This document shows positions 19,421 through 37,580 of a DNA stretch of 64,000 bases, in pieces (the stretch's first letter is position 1; each line of letters opens with the position of its first letter). The position numbers and the translations under genes are program-made. The notes under the pieces are model-generated. The model ran no database searches. It had not been told where the DNA came from and was given only the letters and a program-made list of their open reading frames with translations. Source of the stretch: Escherichia phage vB_Eco_slurp01; the sequence record LT603033; one strand, 5' to 3'.

Positions 19421-19469
19421 ACATTACATCAAGGGGAGAAATGATTCTCCCCACTACAAGGAAACTAAT

Positions 19470-20427: not shown

Positions 20428-20700
20428 ATGAACGTTAATCAAGTACTAAATGAAGTTGAAAGCATCATTAAACCAATGAAACGTATTGATGCAATGCTAA
20501 CACCGGAAGAATGCCGCCTTTATGAGCGTTACAGCGTCGAACAAGTCCAGGCGATGGCTATGGCTACCCCTGCCGTTAAACAGCCTGAGAATGCGTTACA
20601 GGACGTTACAGGGGATTATATCATTAATCCAGTACTAGGGAAGATTACACCAATCACCGAAGAAGAAAAAGACTACTTAAGCCAGTACTTAAAAGGTTAA
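20428..20700 (+). CDS. Hypothetical protein (90 aa)
   Basis: ORF track. Confidence 0.6.
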   Translation: MNVNQVLNEVESIIKPMKRIDAMLTPEECRLYERYSVEQVQAMAMATPAVKQPENALQDVTGDYIINPVLGKITPITEEEKDYLSQYLKG

Positions 20701-20705
20701 TTAAT

Positions 20706-20915
20706 ATGCTTACTGTACAGGATAAGATCGACATCTTAAAGGTTAATATGTATGTGATTGATGCAGATCCTGAAAAAGTATTTGCATACGATGATTCTAA
20801 TCGTAGTCCTTTTTATTGTAGTCATGTAGTTGGATACGTGCCGTTAGCGTATGTTATCGAAAGAGTGGTTGATTCAGCATACAAACATTTTTTAGAAAAT
20901 AATACTTGCAATTAG
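20706..20915 (+). CDS. Hypothetical protein (69 aa)
   Basis: ORF track; stop lies inside the next promoter. Confidence 0.55.
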   Translation: MLTVQDKIDILKVNMYVIDADPEKVFAYDDSNRSPFYCSHVVGYVPLAYVIERVVDSAYKHFLENNTCN

Positions 20916-20933
20916 TTTTTAGTACTGTATAAT
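20906..20933 (+). promoter_or_regulatory. Early promoter
   Basis: TTGCAA N16 TATAAT; hairpin ~20946-20967. Confidence 0.7.
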
Positions 20934-20984
20934 AGTTTACATGAAGTGGAGAAATAGTTCTCCCCACTAATTAAGGAATATGAA

Positions 20985-21131
20985 ATGAAAGCATCAAAAA
21001 AGAGTACTAATAAGAAAGCACGTTCAACTTTAGATGGGGTATTCCCTTTGCGTTTTGTGGATGAAGTGGTTTCCTACCCGCTGGGGCTTACTCCTGAGAT
21101 GGTAGAAAGTTTACGTAAATCTAAAAAATAA
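20985..21131 (+). CDS. Hypothetical small basic protein (48 aa)
   Basis: Own translation MKASKKSTNKKARSTLDGVFPLRF...; below ORF-track cutoff. Confidence 0.45.
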   Translation: MKASKKSTNKKARSTLDGVFPLRFVDEVVSYPLGLTPEMVESLRKSKK

Positions 21132-21134
21132 TAC

Positions 21135-21162
21135 TTGCAATTAGTTTTTAGTACTGTATAAT
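21135..21162 (+). promoter_or_regulatory. Early promoter
   Basis: TTGCAA N16 TATAAT; hairpin 21175-21194. Confidence 0.7.
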
Positions 21163-21212
21163 AGTTTACATGAAGGGGAGAAATGATTCTCCCCAAGAAC
21201 AGGAGAAATAAA

Positions 21213-21365
21213 ATGAAACAATATAATGCTCGGTTTGATGTTACTATCGGTAACGGTAAAGGTCAATTTTCTTTCAGTACTCGACGCAGTTATACAGAAA
21301 ACTTCCTGCGTAATTGTGCACTGACCGCCGCTCAAATTAAACATTATTTTCAGGCTAAAAAATGA
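21213..21365 (+). CDS. Hypothetical small protein (50 aa)
   Basis: ORF 21183..21365 trimmed to MKQYNARF after AGGAGAAA RBS. Confidence 0.55.
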   Translation: MKQYNARFDVTIGNGKGQFSFSTRRSYTENFLRNCALTAAQIKHYFQAKK

Positions 21366-21451
21366 AATCATTAGCTTATTACAGTTCGGCCCTGGTCGTT
21401 GCATTGATCGCGGCGTTGTTAGTAACCTATCTATTCTTTATGGTGATTTAA
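21362..21451 (+). CDS. Tiny hydrophobic peptide (29 aa), predicted single transmembrane helix
   Basis: Own translation MKSLAYYSSALVVALIAALLVTYLFFMVI; ATGA coupling. Confidence 0.35.
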   Translation: MKSLAYYSSALVVALIAALLVTYLFFMVI

Positions 21452-21589
21452 ATGAATCCTAACGGTATAATTTACAGTACTCCTAAAACGAAAGCAGACA
21501 AGGTAAACGCTAAAAAAGCGAAAGTAAAGGAGTACATCAAGCAAGGCATGACGCGAAAGGCGGCGATTCTAAAAGCTAAAAATAAATGA
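21452..21589 (+). CDS. Small basic protein (45 aa)
   Basis: Own translation MNPNGIIYSTPKTKADKVNAKKAKVKEYIKQGMTRKAAILKAKNK. Confidence 0.4.
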   Translation: MNPNGIIYSTPKTKADKVNAKKAKVKEYIKQGMTRKAAILKAKNK

Positions 21590-21595
21590 AAAAAG

Positions 21596-21720
21596 TGGTT
21601 GACTTCGGTCAGCCATTTTGCTATTATATATTCATTGAGAGATAGCTCACTAGCCCACAGGGTGCAGGAGTGTATCTATTGTATAATGTTTGAGTACTGA
21701 AAACTATTTTTAAAAAAGTA
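21596..21720 (+). repeat. Repeated intergenic module (hairpin overlapping TTGACT-N17-TATTAT promoter + CCCACAGGGTGC motif), copy 1
   Basis: Other copies at 25196-25320, 28463-28600, 30726-30870. Confidence 0.7.
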
Positions 21721-21721
21721 C

Positions 21722-21749
21722 TTGAAAACTATCTCAATTGGCGTATAAT
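21722..21749 (+). promoter_or_regulatory. Early promoter
   Basis: TTGAAA N16 TATAAT; hairpin 21764-21780. Confidence 0.65.
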
Positions 21750-21800
21750 GTTTTACATCGCAAGGGGAAACGGTTTCCCCTGGTAATAAGGAAACGAATC

Positions 21801-22142
21801 ATGACTATCTCAATTGCTCAATCTAACTTTGAAAATGAAATCATCGCCCAGGTACTGCGTTTAAATGATGGTCGGGCCGAAATTAATTACGGTTTCAATT
21901 CAGGCGGTTGTGAAAACTATCAGTACTTTGTAACGGCTGATGGCGGTGTCCTGGGCATCAATACAGTTATTGTAAACATCCAAAAAATTAATTTCAATGA
22001 TCCAGACGATAGCCAGTTTTACATCACTGGCGTAGACGTGAACTATGAGGATGACTCACTAACTGATGATTACACTGGTGAGCGGTTAGAAAGTGCTTAT
22101 GGTGAAGATGATTATCAGTCAGTACCGGAAGATTTCGAATAA
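21801..22142 (+). CDS. Hypothetical early protein (113 aa)
   Basis: ORF 21738..22142 trimmed to MTISIAQ after AAGGAAAC RBS. Confidence 0.7.
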   Translation: MTISIAQSNFENEIIAQVLRLNDGRAEINYGFNSGGCENYQYFVTADGGVLGINTVIVNIQKINFNDPDDSQFYITGVDVNYEDDSLTDDYTGERLESAYGEDDYQSVPEDFE

Positions 22143-22155
22143 TATAAAAAATAGT

Positions 22156-22183
22156 TTGACAATAGATTATAGTACTGTATAAT
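22156..22183 (+). promoter_or_regulatory. Early promoter
   Basis: TTGACA N16 TATAAT; hairpin GGGGAGAA-TAG-TTCTCCCC at 22196-22214. Confidence 0.7.
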
Positions 22184-22234
22184 AGTTTACATCAAGGGGA
22201 GAATAGTTCTCCCCACTAACAGAGAAAAAACAAA

Positions 22235-22447
22235 ATGGCTAATATCCGCACTGTACTGAAAAATGCAAAACAAGTTTTATTTTCTGATCATGATACTTTC
22301 AACAAGGATATTACTGGCGTTCGGAATATCAAAGATGTAAAAAGTGTTATGGGTATCTATTGCAATATGAAACGTGTTGGAACGTTCGGCGACAAAGTAC
22401 TATACCAGGCAGGGGATTACAATTTTACACTGACTATCATTAACTAA
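22235..22447 (+). CDS. Hypothetical early protein (70 aa)
   Basis: ORF track. Confidence 0.7.
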   Translation: MANIRTVLKNAKQVLFSDHDTFNKDITGVRNIKDVKSVMGIYCNMKRVGTFGDKVLYQAGDYNFTLTIIN

Positions 22448-22466
22448 AAATATTATCACAGTACTA

Positions 22467-22495
22467 TTGACATAGTTTGATAGTACTGACATAAT
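22467..22495 (+). promoter_or_regulatory. Early promoter (no-hairpin class)
   Basis: TTGACA N17 CATAAT. Confidence 0.7.
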
Positions 22496-22530
22496 AAGTT
22501 TTATCAACTACACTACTAAGGAATTAAAAA

Positions 22531-22710
22531 ATGGCTATCATCGCAAAAACTGAAATCATCGGCCTGGATTCTATCATCATGACGTTTGAAGATCAAAAAG
22601 GTATGTATGTGGTTTCCTATGGTGATTATGTTCGGGAGTATGAAACGGTAGACGAAGCCTTTGAAAGTTACATTCGCCAGGTGAATAAAGCATACGACGA
22701 CTACCGCTAA
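22531..22710 (+). CDS. Hypothetical small protein (59 aa)
   Basis: Own translation MAIIAKTEIIGLDSIIMTFEDQKG...; AAGGAATT RBS. Confidence 0.5.
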   Translation: MAIIAKTEIIGLDSIIMTFEDQKGMYVVSYGDYVREYETVDEAFESYIRQVNKAYDDYR

Positions 22711-22737
22711 AATATATTACCAGTACTATTAAAGATA

Positions 22738-22765
22738 TTGACAACGTTTGATAGTACTGTATAAT
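22738..22765 (+). promoter_or_regulatory. Early promoter
   Basis: TTGACA N16 TATAAT. Confidence 0.7.
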
Positions 22766-22808
22766 AAGTTTTATCAACAGTAGTTAACTTAACCTAAGAG
22801 AGAAACAA

Positions 22809-22913
22809 AATGATCGCACTGGATTCATTCATCGACGCAGTACTGGCAAAAACTGGCGAGGATCTGACCGCAGAACAATACGCAATGATCGAGCAATGCC
22901 AGCAAGACGGTAA
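22809..22913 (+). CDS. Short ORF (34 aa) with a more protein-like continuation in the +1 frame to 22953; possible frameshifted gene
   Basis: ATG after AAGAGAGA RBS; GGG run at 22859-22861 shifts frame. Confidence 0.3.
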   Translation, partial: NDRTGFIHRRSTGKNWRGSDRRTIRNDRAMPARR

Positions 22914-22959
22914 ATCGGTGAAAGATACTGTTAAGATTATCCGCAAGATGTAAGATTAT

Positions 22960-22990
22960 AGCCCACTGGTTAACGCTGGTGGGCTTTAAT
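22960..22990 (+). terminator. Putative terminator
   Basis: AGCCCAC...GTGGGCT stem then T-rich; stem includes a Chi octamer. Confidence 0.5.
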
Positions 22991-23058
22991 TCATTACCCT
23001 ATACAATGCCAGTACTAAACCGTTTATCTCCTTAGAATGCGTTACAGGACGTTTGACA

Positions 23059-23256
23059 ATGATTAGCATGAAATCAGTACAAAAACAAATAGAAACATTA
23101 TCAAAAATTAAACGTAAACAGTACTCGTTAGAATATACAATCAATGGTAACTATCATCTAATGAAAGAGAATAATTTCATTGTCATTGATGAATCATTGC
23201 AAATCATTAGTATAGTACTGAAAGCATTAATCAATGACAGAAAAAAATTAAAATAA
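23059..23256 (+). CDS. Hypothetical protein (66 aa)
   Basis: ORF track (TTG start at 23053) trimmed to first ATG; no clear promoter. Confidence 0.45.
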   Translation: MISMKSVQKQIETLSKIKRKQYSLEYTINGNYHLMKENNFIVIDESLQIISIVLKALINDRKKLK

Positions 23257-23260
23257 TATA

Positions 23261-23289
23261 TTGACAATATCCTCCAGTACTGGCATAAT
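23261..23289 (+). promoter_or_regulatory. Promoter followed by ~290-bp non-coding leader
   Basis: TTGACA N17 CATAAT. Confidence 0.65.
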
Positions 23290-23587
23290 ACTTACATCAA
23301 GACGAGAACGTCACTAACCCATAGGGTGCACAAATGTAACTGTATAATATTGATCAAAAAATGATCTGATCAATACTTGATCAATTTGCGTAAAGTAGTA
23401 TAATTCTATGCAGTTGGTTAGACGAAAGGTTATGATTAGTAGTGCAAGTGTATAAAAATTTTCATGGTGTATCGTTTCGCACATATGGGGATGAATATGT
23501 GGTATCATGTGGATTGGAAAAAGTAAGAACAAGTAATATTATTGTCGCATTACAGTACTATAGTATTTTTATAATGAGGTTAAAATA
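23290..23587 (+). ncRNA. Candidate non-coding RNA or long leader with clustered TGATCA/GATC
   Basis: No plus-strand ORF; TTGATCAA x3 + GATCTGATCAA within 23340-23395. Confidence 0.3.
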
Positions 23588-23845
23588 ATGGCTGTAGGAT
23601 TCGCGAAAGATGGGGCCGAACAAGACGAGATTAACGCAGTGATTCAGGCCGCCGTTAACCACGCTAGAAAGCAAATTAACGCACAAATAGAATCACTGAT
23701 ACATTGCCTCGACTGCGGCGATATAATCCCTGAGAAACGACGCCAGGCCGTTAAGGGGTGTAAGTACTGCATAACTTGCCAGGAGGATCATGATAGTACT
23801 TTTAAACGTCCCCCGCGTAATTGTTGGCATAGATCTATGAGATAA
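23588..23845 (+). CDS. TraR/DksA-family C4 zinc-finger protein (85 aa)
   Basis: CLDCGDIIPEKRRQAVKGCKYC fits C-x2-C-x3-I-P-x2-R...C-x2-C signature. Confidence 0.6.
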   Translation: MAVGFAKDGAEQDEINAVIQAAVNHARKQINAQIESLIHCLDCGDIIPEKRRQAVKGCKYCITCQEDHDSTFKRPPRNCWHRSMR

Positions 23846-23851
23846 AAAGTA

Positions 23852-23880
23852 TTGACAGTACTATCCAGTAGTGTTATAGT
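23852..23880 (+). promoter_or_regulatory. Early promoter
   Basis: TTGACA N17 TATAGT; hairpin GGGGAA-ACATC-TTCCCC at 23892-23908. Confidence 0.65.
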
Positions 23881-23926
23881 ACTTACATCAAGGGGAAACA
23901 TCTTCCCCTACTAAGAGGAAATGAAA

Positions 23927-24115
23927 ATGGAAAACTTATCAAGTATTTTAGTACAAGATGATTTCGGTAATCCTGGAAGTGCTATCATTGTTCGGGGTAA
24001 TAAAGCAACATTTGTTATTGCTGGTGGACCTGTACAGCGTAGCATTAAAAATAATGCTGTTACCATTAATAATGTACGCTATCGCTTAGATAAAGAATTG
24101 ATTCATAAACTGTAA
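23927..24115 (+). CDS. Hypothetical early protein (62 aa)
   Basis: ORF 23921..24115; second ATG has better RBS spacing. Confidence 0.6.
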   Translation: MENLSSILVQDDFGNPGSAIIVRGNKATFVIAGGPVQRSIKNNAVTINNVRYRLDKELIHKL

Positions 24116-24142
24116 TATTAATTTAATAGAGGATAACAATAA

Positions 24143-24466
24143 ATGTACATTCATACTACTATCACAAAGGAAGTCCGTTGCCAGTTCGAAAGTATTCCGG
24201 GCGTATGTTTCATCACTGGTACGTTTTCCCCTGGTGATCGTGATAATCCAGTACTGTTACAATTACGCCATCCATCATGGGATAAAGCATTTGATCTACC
24301 GTTGAATGAATTCGCAACTACTGCTGAAAAGTACATTAAAAATATTCGCGAGAATGATCGACTATTCATTAATGCTTTTAGTGATTCCGCGTTAAGCGAG
24401 ATCCACGGCGTATTGGTTGCAATCATGGAATCAATGGAGAAAACTAAATTCAAACAAGGTGAATAA
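24143..24466 (+). CDS. Hypothetical protein (107 aa)
   Basis: ORF track; GAGGATAA RBS. Confidence 0.65.
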   Translation: MYIHTTITKEVRCQFESIPGVCFITGTFSPGDRDNPVLLQLRHPSWDKAFDLPLNEFATTAEKYIKNIRENDRLFINAFSDSALSEIHGVLVAIMESMEKTKFKQGE

Positions 24467-24472
24467 AAACTA

Positions 24473-24500
24473 TTGACAAGATAATCTAGTACTGTATAAT
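24473..24500 (+). promoter_or_regulatory. Early promoter
   Basis: TTGACA N16 TATAAT; hairpin 24513-24532. Confidence 0.7.
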
Positions 24501-24549
24501 AAGTTACATGAAGGGGAGAAATGATTCTCCCCACTAAGAGGAAAGAAAA

Positions 24550-24762
24550 ATGCAAGGTCAACTAATCGTTCGTAAATGGTCTGATACTAACGAAAAACCG
24601 TGGGATGTACAATACATCGGACCGGATGGGGTATCACGTTATCAGCCAGGCGTAACGCATAGTACTGAGCAATATGCCGCCGCTCACCGCGAACGCCTGT
24701 TAGAATCCATGAAACAGGGATTCTGTGAAAAATTCATTCAAGATCATTGGCTGAAAGATTAA
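24550..24762 (+). CDS. Hypothetical early protein (70 aa)
   Basis: ORF track; AAGAGGAAAG RBS. Confidence 0.7.
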   Translation: MQGQLIVRKWSDTNEKPWDVQYIGPDGVSRYQPGVTHSTEQYAAAHRERLLESMKQGFCEKFIQDHWLKD

Positions 24763-24779
24763 TAGAAGGAGTACAGCTT

Positions 24780-24872
24780 ATGCAAATGAATCCGATGATT
24801 ATTGTTTTAGCTGTACTTATGATCATTCATGCAATAGTAGAAGTATTAACGCAATCAGGAGTAATAAAATGA
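24780..24872 (+). CDS. Tiny hydrophobic peptide (30 aa), predicted transmembrane
   Basis: Own translation MQMNPMIIVLAVLMIIHAIVEVLTQSGVIK; GAAGGAG RBS. Confidence 0.45.
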   Translation: MQMNPMIIVLAVLMIIHAIVEVLTQSGVIK

Positions 24873-25051
24873 TTCAAGTAGAATTATCAGTACTAAAAGA
24901 TCTGTTTTATCGGATTGGTACTACTGGCGAATATCCGAAGGGTGATAATGCAAAACTTTACGTATCACTCGACTTATGGCAACGCGAACAATTAGCAACG
25001 GCCTGGCGTAAAGGCAAAGCAGATAGCGAGGTGAAAGCATGAAAGAATTCT
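24869..25051 (+). CDS. Hypothetical small protein (60 aa)
   Basis: Own translation MIQVELSVLKDLFYRIGTTGEYPKG...; ATGA overlap. Confidence 0.45.
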
Positions 25052-32092: not shown

Positions 32093-32157
32093 AGAAAAAA
32101 GTCAAGGCGTTTTTAAAATTATGCGTTAAAAAAATGCATAGGTAATCCCTTGACTTT
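32093..32157. repeat. 13-bp perfect inverted repeat AAAAAAGTCAAGG...CCTTGACTTTTTT flanking a ~40-bp spacer
   Basis: Read directly; sits at the boundary between early region and family B array. Confidence 0.6.
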
Positions 32158-32257
32158 TTTGAAATAAAAGGGATTGGACTATGGCAAAATGCGTAGGGGG
32201 CTAAAGGGCGGGTAACCTTAGCGACTTCGATAAAGGGGTATTACGAATAAAATGTTA

Positions 32258-32285
32258 TTGACTTTTTATATGAATCGTATAAAAT
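32258..32285 (+). promoter_or_regulatory. Promoter at head of family B array
   Basis: TTGACT N16 TAAAAT. Confidence 0.5.
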
Positions 32286-32315
32286 ATGATTGATATTAAT
32301 TTTAAGGGAGTCCCT

Positions 32316-32513
32316 ATGCGTATTTTAACTAAAGAACAGCACCACGAAAGACTTATCAATAACATGGCTATGATAATGTATAAGTCCCATGACCGTGGTA
32401 TTGCCTATAAGCGTGAATTAATTATGGCACTATTCATTGGAACTAACTTTCAGGAAAGGTATGTCAACGATTGGATTTGGTATTTAATTGAAGATATAAC
32501 GAGTAAACTATGA
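32316..32513 (+). CDS. Small protein, tandem paralog family B (C-terminal LGTNYQ-type motif)
   Basis: ORF 32286..32513 trimmed to MRILTKEQ after AAGGGAG; motif FIGTNFQERYV. Confidence 0.6.
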   Translation: MRILTKEQHHERLINNMAMIMYKSHDRGIAYKRELIMALFIGTNFQERYVNDWIWYLIEDITSKL

Positions 32514-32710
32514 AAATGCGTATTTTAAATAAAGAAGAATATCAATCACTGTTACGTAAAAACTACGTAAAGATTTACAACACAGACACACATGTAGAAC
32601 GAATGGAGTTATACCTTTTGATTACATTGGGAACAAACTATCAGGGTAGATGGGTGTGGCAATATATGGATACATTGAAAAATAAAATATTGTCCACGAG
32701 GAAACAATGA
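32510..32710 (+). CDS. Family B small protein
   Basis: ORF track; ATGA overlap; LGTNYQGRWV. Confidence 0.6.
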   Translation: MKMRILNKEEYQSLLRKNYVKIYNTDTHVERMELYLLITLGTNYQGRWVWQYMDTLKNKILSTRKQ

Positions 32711-32916
32711 AAACTATAACACGAACCCAATCATACGGTCTTATCTTGAAATACATGGACTTAATGGTGGATATCAGCAAAGACCTGCCTAAAACTGAAA
32801 TTGAAGTTGCAAGAGCAGAGATCCGCATGTTGGCTGTACTGAACACAAACCATCAGGAAGATTATGTTGAAGAATGGATTCGATTTTTAATAGAAGATAT
32901 TAAGAGTAAAATATGA
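32707..32916 (+). CDS. Family B small protein
   Basis: ORF track; LNTNHQEDYV. Confidence 0.6.
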   Translation: MKTITRTQSYGLILKYMDLMVDISKDLPKTEIEVARAEIRMLAVLNTNHQEDYVEEWIRFLIEDIKSKI

Positions 32917-33128
32917 TTATTATAGAAAACTCATATCAATATACTGAACGCATCGCTGCCAGACAACTTGAAATCCTCATAATATACGAAGAGACGTCTG
33001 ATTTAAACTTAGCCGAGGTATTGGAAAATGAAATACTTTTGGGTGCATTCTTGGGAACAGACTATCAGGAGTATTATGAGGAAAAGTATTTGTCATCTCT
33101 TGAGAAATACATCAGGAGCAAATTATGA
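32913..33128 (+). CDS. Family B small protein
   Basis: ORF track; LGTDYQEYYE. Confidence 0.6.
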   Translation: MIIIENSYQYTERIAARQLEILIIYEETSDLNLAEVLENEILLGAFLGTDYQEYYEEKYLSSLEKYIRSKL

Positions 33129-33337
33129 TTATATTAACACCTGAAGAATATAAGAAACGTTTTAATTCTGTCCAGACTGAAATATTACTTATATACCTTT
33201 CAAATGCAGACCTTAACTTATCAAGGGCAATGGAGAAGGATTTACTTATGGGTGCATTTTTGGATACAGACTTTCAGGAGTATTATGTAGGGAAATACTT
33301 AATTGAACTTCAGAACTACATTAAGAGTAAACTATGA
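33125..33337 (+). CDS. Family B small protein
   Basis: ORF track; LDTDFQEYYV. Confidence 0.6.
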   Translation: MIILTPEEYKKRFNSVQTEILLIYLSNADLNLSRAMEKDLLMGAFLDTDFQEYYVGKYLIELQNYIKSKL

Positions 33338-33561
33338 AACATTTAAGTAATATTGAGAAGATGAGAATTATCATTGATGCATTAAACAAATACGATACCC
33401 TTTTACAAATAAAAGGTTTAACTCGATTGGAACACAAGATAAACACCACCGATGTACGCATGTTGGCTGTACTGGGGACGAACTTCCAGGAAGAGTATGT
33501 TATTGCACACATAGTTGCACTCAAGAATTACATTATGGACAAATGTAATGAACATCATTAA
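33334..33561 (+). CDS. Family B small protein
   Basis: ORF track; LGTNFQEEYV. Confidence 0.6.
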   Translation: MKHLSNIEKMRIIIDALNKYDTLLQIKGLTRLEHKINTTDVRMLAVLGTNFQEEYVIAHIVALKNYIMDKCNEHH

Positions 33562-33772
33562 TAACTTTGAATACGAGGCCCGTGCTAAGAGTGCCAGAAA
33601 AAAAGAGAACACCATTTACTTCACTATGATGTACTTACAATGGACTGAAATTGAAGAAAAGGTTGCTGAAGTATGGATGTTGGAATTCATGGGGACGCAG
33701 TATCAGAATAGGTTTGCGGGTGAGTATATCGATGTTCTTATGAAACAAATAGAAAGAAAGGAAAAGAACTAA
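33548..33772 (+). CDS. Family B small protein
   Basis: ORF 33515..33772 trimmed; MGTQYQNRFA. Confidence 0.5.
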   Translation: MNIINNFEYEARAKSARKKENTIYFTMMYLQWTEIEEKVAEVWMLEFMGTQYQNRFAGEYIDVLMKQIERKEKN

Positions 33773-33930
33773 TGGTTTTCATTAACATATCTGACCAACT
33801 CGATACTAAACTAGAAGTCGAGCAGAGTGAGGGATGGATGCTGTACTTTCTTGGAACTTCTCATCAAAATTTTTATATCCATGAACACATAGTTGCACTC
33901 ACAAATCTAATAAGGGATAAATGTAAATGA
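33772..33930 (+). CDS. Family B small protein (52 aa, below ORF-track cutoff)
   Basis: Own translation MVFINISDQLDTKLEVEQSEGWMLYFLGTSHQNFYIHEHIVAL... Confidence 0.5.
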   Translation: MVFINISDQLDTKLEVEQSEGWMLYFLGTSHQNFYIHEHIVALTNLIRDKCK

Positions 33931-34184
33931 AACACTTGACGGACGATGAATATTCACTTAGAATTCGAAAGCTCACCCCAGAAGCAAGAGTAATCTACGA
34001 TGACGATGCACTTTCATGGAACGAGATGAAAGTTAAAGTTCATGAGCTATGGTTGCTGTACTTTGTGGGAACCCAATATCAAGAGAAATATTGTACCGAT
34101 TATCTTGAACAACTAATGGATTTTATACAGATAAAACTAAATGAACGAATTGTGGAAAAATATGAAAACTTTATCAAGCACTGA
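33927..34184 (+). CDS. Family B small protein
   Basis: ORF track; VGTQYQEKYC. Confidence 0.6.
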   Translation: MKHLTDDEYSLRIRKLTPEARVIYDDDALSWNEMKVKVHELWLLYFVGTQYQEKYCTDYLEQLMDFIQIKLNERIVEKYENFIKH

Positions 34185-34413
34185 GTATCAGACTGCCCTC
34201 TTCTCTCTTCTAAACACCCTTCGCACTAACAATAAACTTTATAATTCCCGTGAAGCTGATATCGTCAACGCTGATGTATATCTTAATAAATTCATAGGGA
34301 CTAACTATCAAGAACTGTTCACTCTACGATATATCTCTGCATTGAGAAACGAAATATCAGATAAAACCCGCCAAGCCAGAAGAGAATGGAATAAACAATG
34401 CGACAAAGACTAA
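34162..34413 (+). CDS. Family B small protein
   Basis: ORF 34141..34413, start ambiguous (34141 or 34162); IGTNYQELF. Confidence 0.5.
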   Translation: MKTLSSTEYQTALFSLLNTLRTNNKLYNSREADIVNADVYLNKFIGTNYQELFTLRYISALRNEISDKTRQARREWNKQCDKD

Positions 34414-34646
34414 ATCACAAAATGTATTGTAAACTATTGCAGACACTGGCACAGAAACACTATGACACGGTATCTGAAATATTACCCTATGATATCATGC
34501 GTTTACTTCACTGTGAAGCCGAGATGCTTGTACTGATGACAGGCACTGATAAAACAGCAATCGCCAGATCGATAGAGCAATATATTGATGCACACTACCA
34601 ACACATGAGAACCGAAATCTGGAGGAAAGAGAATGATAATTCTTAA
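34398..34646 (+). CDS. Family B-related small protein
   Basis: ORF track; divergent motif MTGTDKTAIARSIEQYI. Confidence 0.55.
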   Translation: MRQRLNHKMYCKLLQTLAQKHYDTVSEILPYDIMRLLHCEAEMLVLMTGTDKTAIARSIEQYIDAHYQHMRTEIWRKENDNS

Positions 34647-34848
34647 TGAGTATCAGTATCATTGGAGGTTACAAACTATCAAATCAAAAGTGTATAGTAT
34701 TGTGTTAAACAAATCTATTGCACAAGAGGACAAATGTGTTATAATAGCTGAAATGAAGTTGGGTGTATTCGTAGGGACAAACTATCAAAACATCTACACT
34801 GACGTATTATTAAGTTCCTTACGTAACAAGGTGGTATCCAAAATATGA
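34633..34848 (+). CDS. Family B small protein
   Basis: ORF track; VGTNYQNIYT. Confidence 0.6.
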   Translation: MIILNEYQYHWRLQTIKSKVYSIVLNKSIAQEDKCVIIAEMKLGVFVGTNYQNIYTDVLLSSLRNKVVSKI

Positions 34849-35063
34849 GAAATTTACAAGGCTTTGAATACATCAGACTCCTGAAAACATGTGGAAGCAG
34901 AAGGAGAATGATATCAAGCGATAAGAGCATCCAAGCTAACCTTAAGCACGCACTAGTAACTGAACTCTATGTAGGTGCACTCTTAGGCACAAACTATCAA
35001 CAAATGTATGTAGATCTATGGATTGACGCTCTACAGAAAGAGGTTAAAAGTAAATGCAAATGA
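34845..35063 (+). CDS. Family B small protein
   Basis: ORF track; LGTNYQQMYV. Confidence 0.6.
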   Translation: MRNLQGFEYIRLLKTCGSRRRMISSDKSIQANLKHALVTELYVGALLGTNYQQMYVDLWIDALQKEVKSKCK

Positions 35064-35272
35064 TTAATTTAAGTAAAGACGAATTTTATGTTATACTGGC
35101 GAAAACTTATCCAGCACGTAAGGCCGTTTATGATAGTCACATTATTGAACCCTCAAAGAAGTTGATTTTAGTAAATGAGATAAAGATGCTTTCAGTCTTA
35201 GGAACAAACTATCAAGAGAATGCTGTACTGATGTTAATTGATGCCCTCCAGCGAGAGGTTAAACGTAAATGA
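35054..35272 (+). CDS. Family B small protein
   Basis: ORF track; LGTNYQENAV. Confidence 0.6.
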   Translation: MQMINLSKDEFYVILAKTYPARKAVYDSHIIEPSKKLILVNEIKMLSVLGTNYQENAVLMLIDALQREVKRK

Positions 35273-35499
35273 AAATGATTCATTTAACTTACCATGAATA
35301 TCAAAAACGTTTAAATGCATCCAGAGATATAAGGATTCAAATATTCAATAACAAAAGATTGAAGCCTGATATCAGAAAAATCAAAATTATAGAAGCAGAG
35401 TTATGCAACTTTCTAGGGACCAACTATCAGGCAGGTAAGGTAAAAAACTATCTTAGAGAACTAATGAATAGTATTGAAAATAAATGTAAGGGTAATTAA
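35269..35499 (+). CDS. Family B small protein
   Basis: ORF track; LGTNYQAGKV. Confidence 0.6.
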   Translation: MKMIHLTYHEYQKRLNASRDIRIQIFNNKRLKPDIRKIKIIEAELCNFLGTNYQAGKVKNYLRELMNSIENKCKGN

Positions 35500-35500
35500 C

Positions 35501-35740
35501 ATGAAAATGATTAAATTATCTCAAGCAAAATATAAAGAACGCCTGGTAAAAATTGCACCTGGACTTAATGAAATCCATCACGGAGAAGTCATTAAACACG
35601 GAAATAAGATGATTATGAAACTTGAGTTAAAGGTGGGTGCATTCATAGGAACAAACTATCAGGAGTATTATGTAGATGAATACATAATCGCACTTAAGAG
35701 ATATATTGGAAGAAAACTATATCTACAAACTAAAGAATAG
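35501..35740 (+). CDS. Family B small protein
   Basis: ORF 35474..35740 (TTG) trimmed to ATG; IGTNYQEYYV. Confidence 0.55.
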   Translation: MKMIKLSQAKYKERLVKIAPGLNEIHHGEVIKHGNKMIMKLELKVGAFIGTNYQEYYVDEYIIALKRYIGRKLYLQTKE

Positions 35741-35769
35741 TATTGAAAATAAATGTGAGGTTGATGAAC

Positions 35770-36033
35770 ATGCAAATGATCAATTTAAGTAAAGATGAAT
35801 ATACCGAGCGTATGACAAAAATTACGCACAAACGTAATACAATCTATCACAACCCAGAAATTCAACACAGTAAGAAAATGATTATGATGCGTGAGTTAAA
35901 GATGGGTGTATTCTTAGGAACAAACTATCAAGATACAGAAGTAAATCGCTTAATCGCGGAGTTACTACTGGAAATCAGAGGTAAGCTGTACTTTCATCAA
36001 ATGACCCAACCACTGAGGTGTACTAAGAAATGA
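35770..36033 (+). CDS. Family B small protein
   Basis: Trimmed to MQMINLSKDEY; upstream 35716-35762 duplicates 35458-35503. Confidence 0.55.
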   Translation: MQMINLSKDEYTERMTKITHKRNTIYHNPEIQHSKKMIMMRELKMGVFLGTNYQDTEVNRLIAELLLEIRGKLYFHQMTQPLRCTKK

Positions 36034-36245
36034 TCAACATCACATTGCAAGAAAGATTCATCCGAATCAACTATGCAATTACCAAATTAGATGCTACTAT
36101 AGGATTCCAAAGTCTACCATACAAAACCAGATTGTTATTAGAGTGTGAAGCTAAGTTGGGTGTACTGTTAGGGACGCAACACCAACAACGATATGTGGAA
36201 ATCTGGATTGACCTTTTAACCCAAAATATATATGAGAGAATGTAA
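36030..36245 (+). CDS. Family B small protein
   Basis: ORF track; LGTQHQQRYV. Confidence 0.6.
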   Translation: MINITLQERFIRINYAITKLDATIGFQSLPYKTRLLLECEAKLGVLLGTQHQQRYVEIWIDLLTQNIYERM

Positions 36246-36476
36246 ATGCAAAATGAAATGATATACTTAACGAATGAAGAATTTCAAGAGAAGATGTTAA
36301 AAACCAAAAACATTACTCTTAAGTTCGGTCCAAATCAATCAATATCTGAAGTATCTGCAAATGTATTGTTTCAGAAGCTACCATACGTTCTTGGAACTGA
36401 TAAACAAGAATTTATGGTTCAAAATATGATTGAACATCTTATGATGAGTATTAAGGAAAAAGTAAATGCAAAATGA
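36246..36476 (+). CDS. Family B-related small protein
   Basis: ORF track; LGTDKQEFMV. Confidence 0.6.
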   Translation: MQNEMIYLTNEEFQEKMLKTKNITLKFGPNQSISEVSANVLFQKLPYVLGTDKQEFMVQNMIEHLMMSIKEKVNAK

Positions 36477-36720
36477 AATGATATACTTAACCTATAATGA
36501 ATACGTCGAGAGATTAGTTCGTGCCAAGAGATATACCAATAAACGTCCAATTGACCTAAACCAAACCCCAGCAGAAAGGAGTGCAGAAGTATTATTCCAA
36601 TCACTACCATACCTTCTTGGAACTGATAGACAAGAGGAATATGTTGCACGTATGATTAGATATCTTAAAATCACTATTAAGGAAAAAGTAAATGCAAATG
36701 AAATACTTAACAGACGATGA
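36466..36720 (+). CDS. Family B-related small protein
   Basis: ORF track; LGTDRQEEYV; same first 9 codons as 36246. Confidence 0.6.
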   Translation: MQNEMIYLTYNEYVERLVRAKRYTNKRPIDLNQTPAERSAEVLFQSLPYLLGTDRQEEYVARMIRYLKITIKEKVNANEILNRR

Positions 36721-36943
36721 GTTAAAAGAACGACTAATTAAATCAAGAAAACATACAAATCAACTTCCAAACGACACAAACAAGTCTCCAGCGGAAAGGA
36801 GTGCAGAAGTTTTATACATTCAACTCATGTACTTTCTTGGCACTGACAGACAAGAGTATTACATTGAAAGTATGCTTCGATATCTTAAATTCTCTATAAA
36901 GGAAAAGATACATGATCAAGTATTTAAAAATCCTAACAGTTAA
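36692..36943 (+). CDS. Family B-related small protein
   Basis: ORF track; LGTDRQEYYI. Confidence 0.6.
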   Translation: MQMKYLTDDELKERLIKSRKHTNQLPNDTNKSPAERSAEVLYIQLMYFLGTDRQEYYIESMLRYLKFSIKEKIHDQVFKNPNS

Positions 36944-37154
36944 TGAATATCATAAGATTGTAATGAAAACTAATAGTGATTACGCTAAAAAATCAAACCC
37001 AAAGTACATACTGGAACACACATTTGAAGAACGTCAATTAGCTTTAGTTGAAGCAAAACTTCTTGCACTCCTAGGAACAAACTATCAGGAAGAATACATC
37101 AGAAAACTAATATACCTTTTAACTAAACATATAAGAAAAAGAAAAAATGCATGA
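36912..37154 (+). CDS. Family B small protein
   Basis: ORF track; LGTNYQEEYI. Confidence 0.6.
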   Translation: MIKYLKILTVNEYHKIVMKTNSDYAKKSNPKYILEHTFEERQLALVEAKLLALLGTNYQEEYIRKLIYLLTKHIRKRKNA

Positions 37155-37381
37155 AACACTTGACAGATGATGAACATGGACTTATAGTAATGGATGTAAT
37201 CAACATCGAATACAAAAAGTTGATACGCTACCGTTGTTATGAAGATAAGCAACTCGTTCTAGCAGAACAGAAGTTGTTTCGACTCTTAAACACAAACTTC
37301 CAAGCACAATACGAAGAATCGTATATGTACCTTTTGGCGAGGAAAGCAAAAAGAGATTATGAAAATTTTAAGCAAAGGTGA
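37151..37381 (+). CDS. Family B small protein
   Basis: ORF track; LNTNFQAQYE. Confidence 0.6.
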   Translation: MKHLTDDEHGLIVMDVINIEYKKLIRYRCYEDKQLVLAEQKLFRLLNTNFQAQYEESYMYLLARKAKRDYENFKQR

Positions 37382-37580
37382 TTCAGTAATATTACTTATA
37401 GAGAGTTCAAGTAAATTCTTAAACATAACACTGTCTGATATAGATGAAGATGACAAAGAAGTACTGAGAGCAGATTTAAGAGTACTGTTACATATCGGAA
37501 CAAACCTACAAGAAGAATATGTAGAGTGCTACATTAATGAACTTAAAGAATCAGTACTGAGAAAATGCAAATGCAAATGA
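37359..37580 (+). CDS. Family B small protein
   Basis: ORF track; IGTNLQEEYV. Confidence 0.55.
   Translation: MKILSKGDSVILLIESSSKFLNITLSDIDEDDKEVLRADLRVLLHIGTNLQEEYVECYINELKESVLRKCKCK

Follow-up and report, generated by a model that had tools for sequence, protein, structure and literature searches.

Two very short hydrophobic reading frames in the terminal repeat of an Escherichia jumbo phage: candidate small membrane proteins

Two short reading frames and their operons

The window analyzed here is a stretch of 64,000 nucleotides from Escherichia phage vB_Eco_slurp01 (sequence record LT603033). Its plus strand, on which all the features described below are located unless indicated, contains two very short open reading frames (ORFs), coding for peptide 1 (29 amino acids, 21362..21451) and peptide 2 (30 amino acids, 24780..24872). 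Their coordinates and translations (MKSLAYYSSALVVALIAALLVTYLFFMVI for peptide 1 and MQMNPMIIVLAVLMIIHAIVEVLTQSGVIK for peptide 2) are exactly those of the original prediction, and its description of both as single-helix membrane peptides also withstood closer analysis. In peptide 1, Lys2 is followed by 27 uncharged residues that extend to the C terminus. Peptide 2 has a hydrophobic core (residues 7-23, 17-residue mean 2.9) interrupted solely by His17 (Gln in phage A4) and Glu21, spaced one helical turn from each other, and its AlphaFold2 model is a single continuous helix from residue 5 to 26 (predicted local distance difference test, pLDDT, 92). The best 17-residue hydropathy mean (Kyte-Doolittle) of the two peptides is 2.8-2.9, and their sequences are mutually unrelated (p 0.34). 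Both had been described as hidden, which is correct relative to the length cut-off of the ORF track, but several GenBank records already annotate them.

Peptide 1 is the second of three cistrons. The operon starts with a sigma70-type promoter (21135..21162; TTGCAA, 16 nucleotides, TATAAT, a 10/12 match) and a hairpin in the 5' untranslated region (GGGGAGAAatgaTTCTCCCC, 21175..21194), a module that recurs after many promoters of the array. The first cistron (21213..21365) codes for a 50-amino acid protein matching phrog_7119 (E 7e-28) that is annotated in every relative examined. The start of peptide 1 overlaps the stop codon of this gene (ATGA) and has an AGG 7 nucleotides upstream, so that an initiation context is present, while its TAA stop adjoins the ATG of the third cistron (21452..21589), a 45-amino acid lysine-rich protein matching phrog_29913 (E 2e-29). 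Because of this arrangement at both ends, peptide 1 fills the gap between its neighbors to the nucleotide. An intrinsic terminator closes the operon (21592..21619), embedding the TTGACT -35 element of the next promoter, and the annotation of phage G17 has an ARNold terminator at the corresponding site.

The operon of peptide 2 has the same beginning, a sigma70 promoter (24473..24500; TTGACA, 16 nucleotides, TATAAT, 12/12 match) followed by the leader hairpin GGGGAGAAatgaTTCTCCCC (24513..24532). The first cistron (24550..24762, 70 amino acids, phrog_13428, E 6e-35) ends before the Shine-Dalgarno sequence of peptide 2 (AAGGAG, 24766..24771), located 8 nucleotides before its ATG, and the peptide starts 17 nucleotides past the upstream stop. 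The last codons of peptide 2 (SGV or AGV, TCA GGA GTA in the window) hold the AGGAG Shine-Dalgarno of the third cistron, and its stop overlaps the ATG of this gene (ATGA), which codes for a 57-amino acid protein of phrog_10572 (24869..25042) with three predicted helices. A fourth cistron (25039..25188, 49 amino acids, phrog_37188) starts at another ATGA overlap, and the intrinsic terminator (25200..25227) coincides with one annotated in G17. The coupled starts proposed for both peptides are thus found in peptide 1, while peptide 2 has a Shine-Dalgarno of its own; there it is the stop and not the start that overlaps a neighbor, and coupling with the upstream gene is suggested only by the conserved hairpin described below. 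A longer, 41-amino acid form of peptide 2 initiated at a TTG (24747) was considered and discarded: there is no Shine-Dalgarno for it and part of it lies within the upstream gene, while three lineages keep the ATG and its 8-nucleotide spacing. Both peptides are thus placed in operon settings favorable to translation.

Between 21000 and 25300 the window is 90-97% identical to jumbo phages of the PBECO4/121Q/G17 type that infect E. coli and Salmonella, a similarity that identifies its source as a PBECO4/121Q-like phage of the genus Asteriusvirus (ca. 350 kb). From approximately 19.5 to 27 kb all the genes are on the plus strand and one module is repeated throughout, made up of a sigma70 promoter at or near the consensus, a short 5'-leader hairpin (GGGGAGAA..TTCTCCCC), one to four very short genes and an intrinsic terminator. 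Both peptide loci appear in two copies in several records because this region lies inside the direct terminal repeat, of ca. 21 kb, which holds both operons. The repeat measures 20,993 bp in fEgEco12 by restriction mapping (PMC13070987), 20,668 bp in Sharanji by PhageTerm (PMC11895373) and 20,030 bp in Klebsiella phage Muenster (PhageTerm); the fEgEco12 copy of peptide 1, at 9255-9341, is within its terminal repeat. Short ORFs under RpoD-type promoters have been read as early host-takeover genes in CBB, a related phage (PMC5259590). The original prediction had referred to early operons, and the sigma70 promoters, the terminators and the position in the terminal repeat make early expression of both likely, the timing being deduced from these features.

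Coding character and distribution of the two peptides

At 34% GC, hydrophobicity alone proves little. Both strands of the window together contain 26 ATG-initiated ORFs of 20-45 amino acids with a 17-residue Kyte-Doolittle mean of at least 2.2. If the mean is raised to at least 2.8 and a Shine-Dalgarno match is required, exactly these two ORFs are left on the plus strand and none on the minus strand, while 200 dinucleotide shuffles gave 0.03 such ORFs per strand and two were never reached. The gap filled by peptide 1 can be evaluated in a similar way: in trials that took the ATGA as given, 0.9% of the random spacers with the local composition remained open and had their stop exactly at the next ATG, and the chance probability of a gap-filling spacer ORF with the hydrophobicity of peptide 1 is ca. 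5e-6.

Peptide 2 is very probably a genuine gene. Between the window and phage A4, 33 of its 87 nucleotides differ (38%), distributed 12/4/17 by codon position, with a ratio of nonsynonymous to synonymous substitution rates (dN/dS) of 0.29; the ratio is 0.21 versus phage Turkey5, and members of the close clade give 0.05. One of the alternative frames is full of stops, and the other is open but has the opposite pattern (proportions of synonymous and nonsynonymous differences, pS and pN, of 0.08 and 0.45). A4 and Turkey5 carry a 29-amino acid version with 45-48% identity. A DNA search located a 27-amino acid counterpart, MY[MI]PIIIPLAVLLIAAVICE[QH]YHLLGM, in nine Klebsiella records (annotated only in RefSeq K64-1), with 13 of the 27 residues identical to the window peptide, a similarity that beats composition-matched shuffles (z 3.7, p 0.004). 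It occupies the same slot upstream of the phrog_10572 homolog, and its start context (GGAGTACTG[TC]TAATG) is similar in Shine-Dalgarno and spacer to that of the window (GGAGTACAGCTTATG). In all three lineages (window, A4-type and Klebsiella) the Shine-Dalgarno, be it AAGGAG, GGGAG or AAGGG, lies 8 nucleotides before the ATG.

The gene order around peptide 2 takes three forms among the relatives. In the window, 121Q, PBECO4, G17, UB and the SD phages, a gene is followed by the Shine-Dalgarno, peptide 2 and the 57-amino acid gene, and the same is found, with a different upstream gene, in the Klebsiella phages RaK2, K64-1, Muenster and KP13-7. In A4 and Turkey5 a promoter and leader hairpin separate the upstream gene from peptide 2 and the 57-amino acid gene. 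Finally, in Ecwhy_1, UE-S1 and CMSTMSU the promoter and leader hairpin stand before the 57-amino acid gene and peptide 2 is missing. A promoter directly before the homolog of the 57-amino acid gene also appears in relatives infecting Yersinia, Serratia, Cronobacter and Pectobacterium, and in EJP2 this gene is located behind an unrelated upstream gene that leaves no room for peptide 2. The peptide is detectable in 21 of the 36 Escherichia and Salmonella records that have the 57-amino acid gene, and it adjoins this phrog_10572 gene in every lineage carrying it. Given such clean presence or absence, peptide 2 is an optional accessory cassette, always attached to the phrog_10572 gene. Dozens of public assemblies have the exact window peptide called, with the same genes around it.

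The alleles of the 57-amino acid gene add an observation of a different kind. That of the window has 96-98% identity with an allele carried mainly by phages without peptide 2 (UE-S1, Ecwhy_1, fEgEco12 and JNE01) and only 84-88% with that of most peptide 2 carriers (PBECO4, G17, UB and the SD phages), and JP4 has the same combination of peptide 2 and 57-amino acid allele as the window. This distribution suggests a recombination junction at or beside the boundary between the two genes.

For peptide 1 we consider a genuine gene probable, at a lower level of confidence. It was found at full length by tblastn in 33 phage records, with 89.7-96.6% identity and E-values that are non-significant on their own (0.2-0.8). 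The frame is intact in 12 of the 12 relatives fetched and the neighboring reading frame is interrupted by stops. Among these relatives (94-99% identical at the DNA level) there are 15 variable columns, 5/2/8 by codon position, corresponding to eight synonymous changes and seven replacements (K2R, S3T, L11V, V12I, L15M, T22A and G13V), six of the seven conservative. At the RNA level the peptide 1 segment shows neither a fold signal (z 0.25) nor an Rfam match. Codon 13 (21398-21400) is GTT (Val) in the window and GGT (Gly) in the 12 fetched relatives and in CMSTMSU, and the exact window peptide is found in none of the 33 records; the G13V change may reflect true allelic variation or an error of sequencing. 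All the relatives have a GxxxA/AxxxA packing motif at this place (G13-A17, A14-A18).

CMSTMSU shows an in-frame deletion of two codons in peptide 1. This record (MH494197.1) is labeled 'UNVERIFIED_ORG' and contains frameshifts, broken leader hairpins and a 45-amino acid gene split over two frames; the deletion has to be taken with caution since the record is unverified and there are frameshifts nearby. In EJP2 peptide 1 is absent and a terminator follows the phrog_7119 homolog. We found no convincing counterpart in Klebsiella phage Muenster; a 38-amino acid hydrophobic ORF after the phrog_7119 homolog there (sequence L016, 451-567) was rejected, as it has a TTG start, no clear Shine-Dalgarno and an overlap with a promoter. 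Within the PBECO4/121Q clade, peptide 1 and the 45-amino acid basic protein form one unit.

Annotation of both peptides varies from record to record. Peptide 1 is annotated in SD-15_S21, phAPEC6 (gp520c) and SHEFM2K and skipped in UB, 121Q, G17 and PBECO4, while peptide 2 is annotated in 121Q (gp298), G17 (G17_00022), SD-15_S21 and SHEFM2K and was skipped by the annotators of UB, PBECO4, BF17 and phAPEC6.

The hairpin over the peptide 2 start and other elements of the array

A hairpin is predicted around the Shine-Dalgarno and AUG of peptide 2 (24769..24818). Its 5' arm (GAGUACAGCU, 24769-24778) pairs with a 3' arm located within codons 10-13 (AGCUGUACUU, 24809-24818), and an outer helix extends back to the upstream stop codon. 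The fold z-scores are -1.6 for the window, -1.45 for RaK2 and -2.5 for Muenster, and in the Klebsiella phages the inner stem has 13 bp with the AUG within. In an alignment of eight distinct sequences, 93% of the cells were paired, versus at most 58% with the partner slid. Covariation amounts to one compensatory change between genera (A-U to U-A) and two one-sided changes, and with a single such event the support for the hairpin is modest. The hairpin is predicted in every version of peptide 2 that lies downstream of another gene. A4 and Turkey5, whose peptide 2 is the first cistron behind its own promoter, lack the stem. The 5' arm starts 7 nucleotides past the upstream stop codon, so ribosomes terminating there would open the hairpin. 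The conservation of this predicted structure suggests that translation of peptide 2 may be coupled to that of the upstream gene. A comparable situation is known in the RNA phage MS2, in which a hairpin blocks the start of a cistron until translation of the one upstream opens it, and the position of the predicted hairpin just behind a stop codon resembles this type of coupling.

The leader hairpin mentioned above (GGGGAGAAatgaTTCTCCCC or GGGGAAAcggTTTCCCC) is nearly identical after most early promoters, just upstream of the first Shine-Dalgarno. It is found at 19433-19452, 21175-21194, 22196-22214, 24513-24532 and 28953-28971, with variants at 21764-21780, 23892-23908 and 26096-26111, is conserved in the relatives and travels with the promoter as one module. 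Roles in mRNA stability or in translational control are possibilities. A second repeated unit (21592-21700, 23261-23350, 25200-25300, 28470-28570 and 30730-30830) consists of a terminator stem containing a TTGAC[TA] -35 element, a -10 of TATTAT type, then some 30 nucleotides on a conserved box CCCA[CT]NGGGTGCA, and finally a second TATAAT-like element. It might serve as a small RNA unit, as a binding site for some factor, or as a promoter of the tandem or middle type. We counted 264 copies of the palindrome AGTACT in the 64 kb, compared with 19.7 +/- 4.5 expected from dinucleotide shuffles, a ca. 13-fold enrichment. It lies within the spacer of nearly every sigma70-type promoter (AGTACTGTATAAT; for example at 21150, 22171, 24488 and 24889) and is also frequent in coding sequence, with no occurrence in 32082-37460. 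It is also present in promoters of the relatives that infect Klebsiella, Yersinia, Serratia, Cronobacter and Pectobacterium.

As for other genes of the array, the window encodes a DksA/TraR-type C4 zinc-finger protein (23588-23845), the early arrays of relatives (sequences L024-L033) add genes for a ParE-like protein and a GNAT acetyltransferase, and that of Muenster genes for a YafQ-like toxin and a protein kinase; together they fit a host-takeover set. Other tiny membrane ORFs were seen in the corresponding terminal-repeat arrays of two further phages. Cronobacter phage GAP32 has an unannotated ORF of 28 amino acids (sequence L019, 1684-1770) with one transmembrane domain and an ATGA overlap with the stop of GAP32_036. 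In the terminal repeat of Muenster, whose annotation is curated, three annotated proteins of 35-42 amino acids, each with one transmembrane domain, are found within 10 kb (sequence L016, 1697-1810, 3910-4038 and 5753-5860). Small membrane peptides thus appear to be a general feature of the early region across genera.

Possible roles of the two peptides

Neither peptide matched a family above threshold in Pfam, PHROGs, PADLOC or NCBIfam. The NCBIfam model NF033695 (KPN_01571 family, a transporter-adjacent protein of 30 amino acids) gave a sub-threshold match to peptide 2 (E 0.0025, 17.5 bits, against a curated cut-off of 35), a lower one to the A4 variant (E 0.012, 15.3 bits) and nothing for the Klebsiella variant. 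It may be an effect of composition only, and we found no mention of this family in the literature. Searched exhaustively with HMMER against 1.84 billion representative proteins, peptide 2 recovered its own cluster only, and the scans of IMG/VR with the neighboring proteins retrieved one locus, 121Q itself.

A way to glimpse at their function is comparison with small membrane proteins of known action. PfsE (PA0721) of the Pseudomonas filamentous phage Pf4 is a 30-amino acid inner-membrane peptide that binds PilC and causes superinfection exclusion (PMC8764522). Both our peptides belong to the same size class and may have a similar mode of action. There is no sequence relationship, the YxWGW aromatic motif of PfsE is absent from both by inspection, and PfsE comes from a temperate filamentous phage whereas the peptides come from a lytic jumbo myovirus. 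In bacteria, MgtS, AcrZ, KdpF, PmrR and similar regulators are single helices of 29-49 amino acids that pack against a larger membrane protein. This class and NF033695 have the single-helix format of our peptides, with the difference that NF033695 consists of transporter-adjacent host genes and the peptides are phage genes. Among lytic phages, T4 has Imm and Sp, early small membrane proteins of 83-97 amino acids that block superinfection; they are longer than the peptides and not homologous to them. The pre-early genes of T5, located in its terminal repeat, are short, for the most part without known function, transcribed by the host polymerase from strong promoters and part of the first DNA to enter the cell. 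The two peptide operons likewise consist of short terminal-repeat genes behind strong promoters, with no homology to those of T5, and the order of entry and the timing in Asteriusvirus would be as in T5 by analogy only.

Taking all this together, the explanation that we favor, with a probability of roughly 0.55, is that both ORFs are translated micro-genes for single-pass inner-membrane proteins that modulate a larger membrane protein early in infection. Since the operons have sigma70 promoters and lie inside the terminal repeat, host RNA polymerase would probably transcribe them straight after DNA entry. Peptide 1 would be produced by termination and reinitiation at the ATGA overlap, the ribosomes being then handed over to the next cistron at the TAA-ATG junction. 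The strong Shine-Dalgarno of peptide 2 would be shut with its AUG in the hairpin until ribosomes finishing the upstream gene melt it, and synthesis of the peptide would thereby be tied to upstream translation. From hydropathy and helix prediction, each product would insert one transmembrane helix into the inner membrane. By analogy with the small membrane proteins above, this helix may pack against a larger membrane protein of the host or the phage and alter its activity, and the purpose, again by analogy, could be early host takeover or exclusion of competing phages.

Several observations weigh against this explanation. At 94-99% DNA identity an intact peptide 1 frame is only mildly informative, the probability of at least eight synonymous changes out of 15 is 0.017-0.07 depending on the transition bias assumed (a weak signal of selection), and the test for conservative replacements is not significant (p ca. 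0.13). The G13V change unique to the window abolishes the GxxxA motif kept in every relative. As for peptide 2, comparison of the A4-type peptide by itself with the Klebsiella 27-mer gave no significant similarity (p 0.19), and therefore the link across genera rests on the window-type sequence and on synteny. In addition, its conserved parts are under a double constraint, LAVL (codons 10-13) being also the 3' arm of the hairpin and the C-terminal SGV/AGV the next Shine-Dalgarno, so that the conservation is not entirely due to the peptide. The neighboring proteins matched only PHROGs of unknown function, and a PDB sequence search and Foldseek against PDB and BFVD, run for the neighbors and the 57-amino acid protein, returned only self-family or non-significant matches. 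Finally, we found no transcript, ribosome-profiling or proteomic data for this phage group in the literature.

An alternative, which we regard as unlikely, is that the peptides are membrane-damaging toxins like those of type I systems (TisB, ZorO, Ibs, ShoB), depolarizing or permeabilizing the inner membrane for early host shut-down, with mRNA structure limiting their synthesis. Type I toxins, Hok included, have 19-50 amino acids and one hydrophobic helix, the size and hydrophobicity of both peptides. A ribosome-binding site hidden in mRNA structure is typical of toxic small-peptide genes, and the sequestered Shine-Dalgarno and AUG of peptide 2 share this trait; peptide 1 does not, its start showing no translational occlusion (z 0.25). 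The ParE-like protein and the YafQ-like toxin of Muenster would also place toxin-like genes in the same array. On the other hand, no Pfam or NCBIfam model of the type I families Hok, Ldr, TisB, Ibs, ShoB or ZorO matched at E up to 10, and Rfam detected no RNA family, and so no antitoxin RNA, over 20500-25800, although a small RNA of a new type would be missed in this way. Neither ORF is crossed by a strong or convincing antisense promoter, the best on the minus strand being a 9/12 match at 24982-24955. Both peptides are internal to a phage early operon, a setting unlike that of the type I toxins, and depolarization at the start of the long cycle of a jumbo phage would presumably cost the phage energy. 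A holin-like activity had also been suggested in the original prediction. Here the context argues against it, with consensus sigma70 promoters, short hypothetical genes in a terminal repeat and no lysis genes within several kb in the window or the relatives, and a holin or antiholin role is unlikely for either peptide.

The ORFs might instead be translated just to carry ribosomes between cistrons, the peptide itself being immaterial, an idea to which we give little credence. The way peptide 1 joins two genes without a free nucleotide, combined with its weak selection signal, is what would be expected, and peptide 2 has a 3' end that holds the Shine-Dalgarno of the next gene and overlaps its start. 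But many relatives have the phrog_10572 gene immediately after a promoter, with its own Shine-Dalgarno and no peptide 2, and a relay would have no need for the T at codon position 2 and the continuous hydrophobic helix that have been kept through 38-50% nucleotide divergence. The low chance probability of a gap-filling ORF with such hydrophobicity (ca. 5e-6) also speaks against the idea. A pure relay role is possible for peptide 1; for peptide 2 it is unlikely. Least probable of all, in our opinion, is that one or both, and mainly peptide 1, are ORFs that arose by chance, either within a structured RNA element or within spacer RNA that is not translated. AT-rich DNA has many hydrophobic mini-ORFs, as the 26 found at the looser threshold illustrate, several annotators skipped both peptides and the tblastn E-values of peptide 1 are not significant. 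These points have to be set against the shuffles (two ORFs observed, 0.03 expected per strand), the coding pattern of substitutions and cross-genus conservation of peptide 2, and, for peptide 1, a spacer with neither fold signal nor Rfam match, an adjacent frame interrupted by stops and 33 records with the full-length peptide.

A more speculative reading can also be outlined, which we hold to be improbable. The AlphaFold2 model of the 57-amino acid phrog_10572 protein is a three-helix bundle, and peptide 2 might form with it a two-part early module across the Escherichia and Klebsiella jumbo phages, as a hairpin-gated, translationally coupled membrane anchor that would recruit or activate this soluble partner at the inner membrane. 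If this were true, the module might be directed at a membrane-bound defense effector or at a membrane complex of the host, and the natural variants with and without peptide 2 would be switchable versions of the function.

Both peptides are probable small membrane proteins of an uncharacterized phage family, which some records already list under 'hypothetical protein'. Early peptides that are small and hydrophobic are well known from large lytic phages, and the two described here do not indicate a new principle. Their relevance lies rather in the biology of the RaK2/PBECO4 group, jumbo phages with hundreds of genes of unknown function. The genes that act first on the host are probably those located in the terminal repeat. 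At least one frame of 30 codons in this repeat (peptide 2) is under purifying selection, common to coliphages and Klebsiella phages, and appears to be gated by a hairpin. Below ca. 30 codons the annotation of these therapeutically relevant phages is inconsistent, the same gene being called or skipped depending on the record. Peptide 2 is a very small and easily synthesized candidate for studies of host takeover or exclusion, and the natural phages with and without it provide a ready-made comparison.

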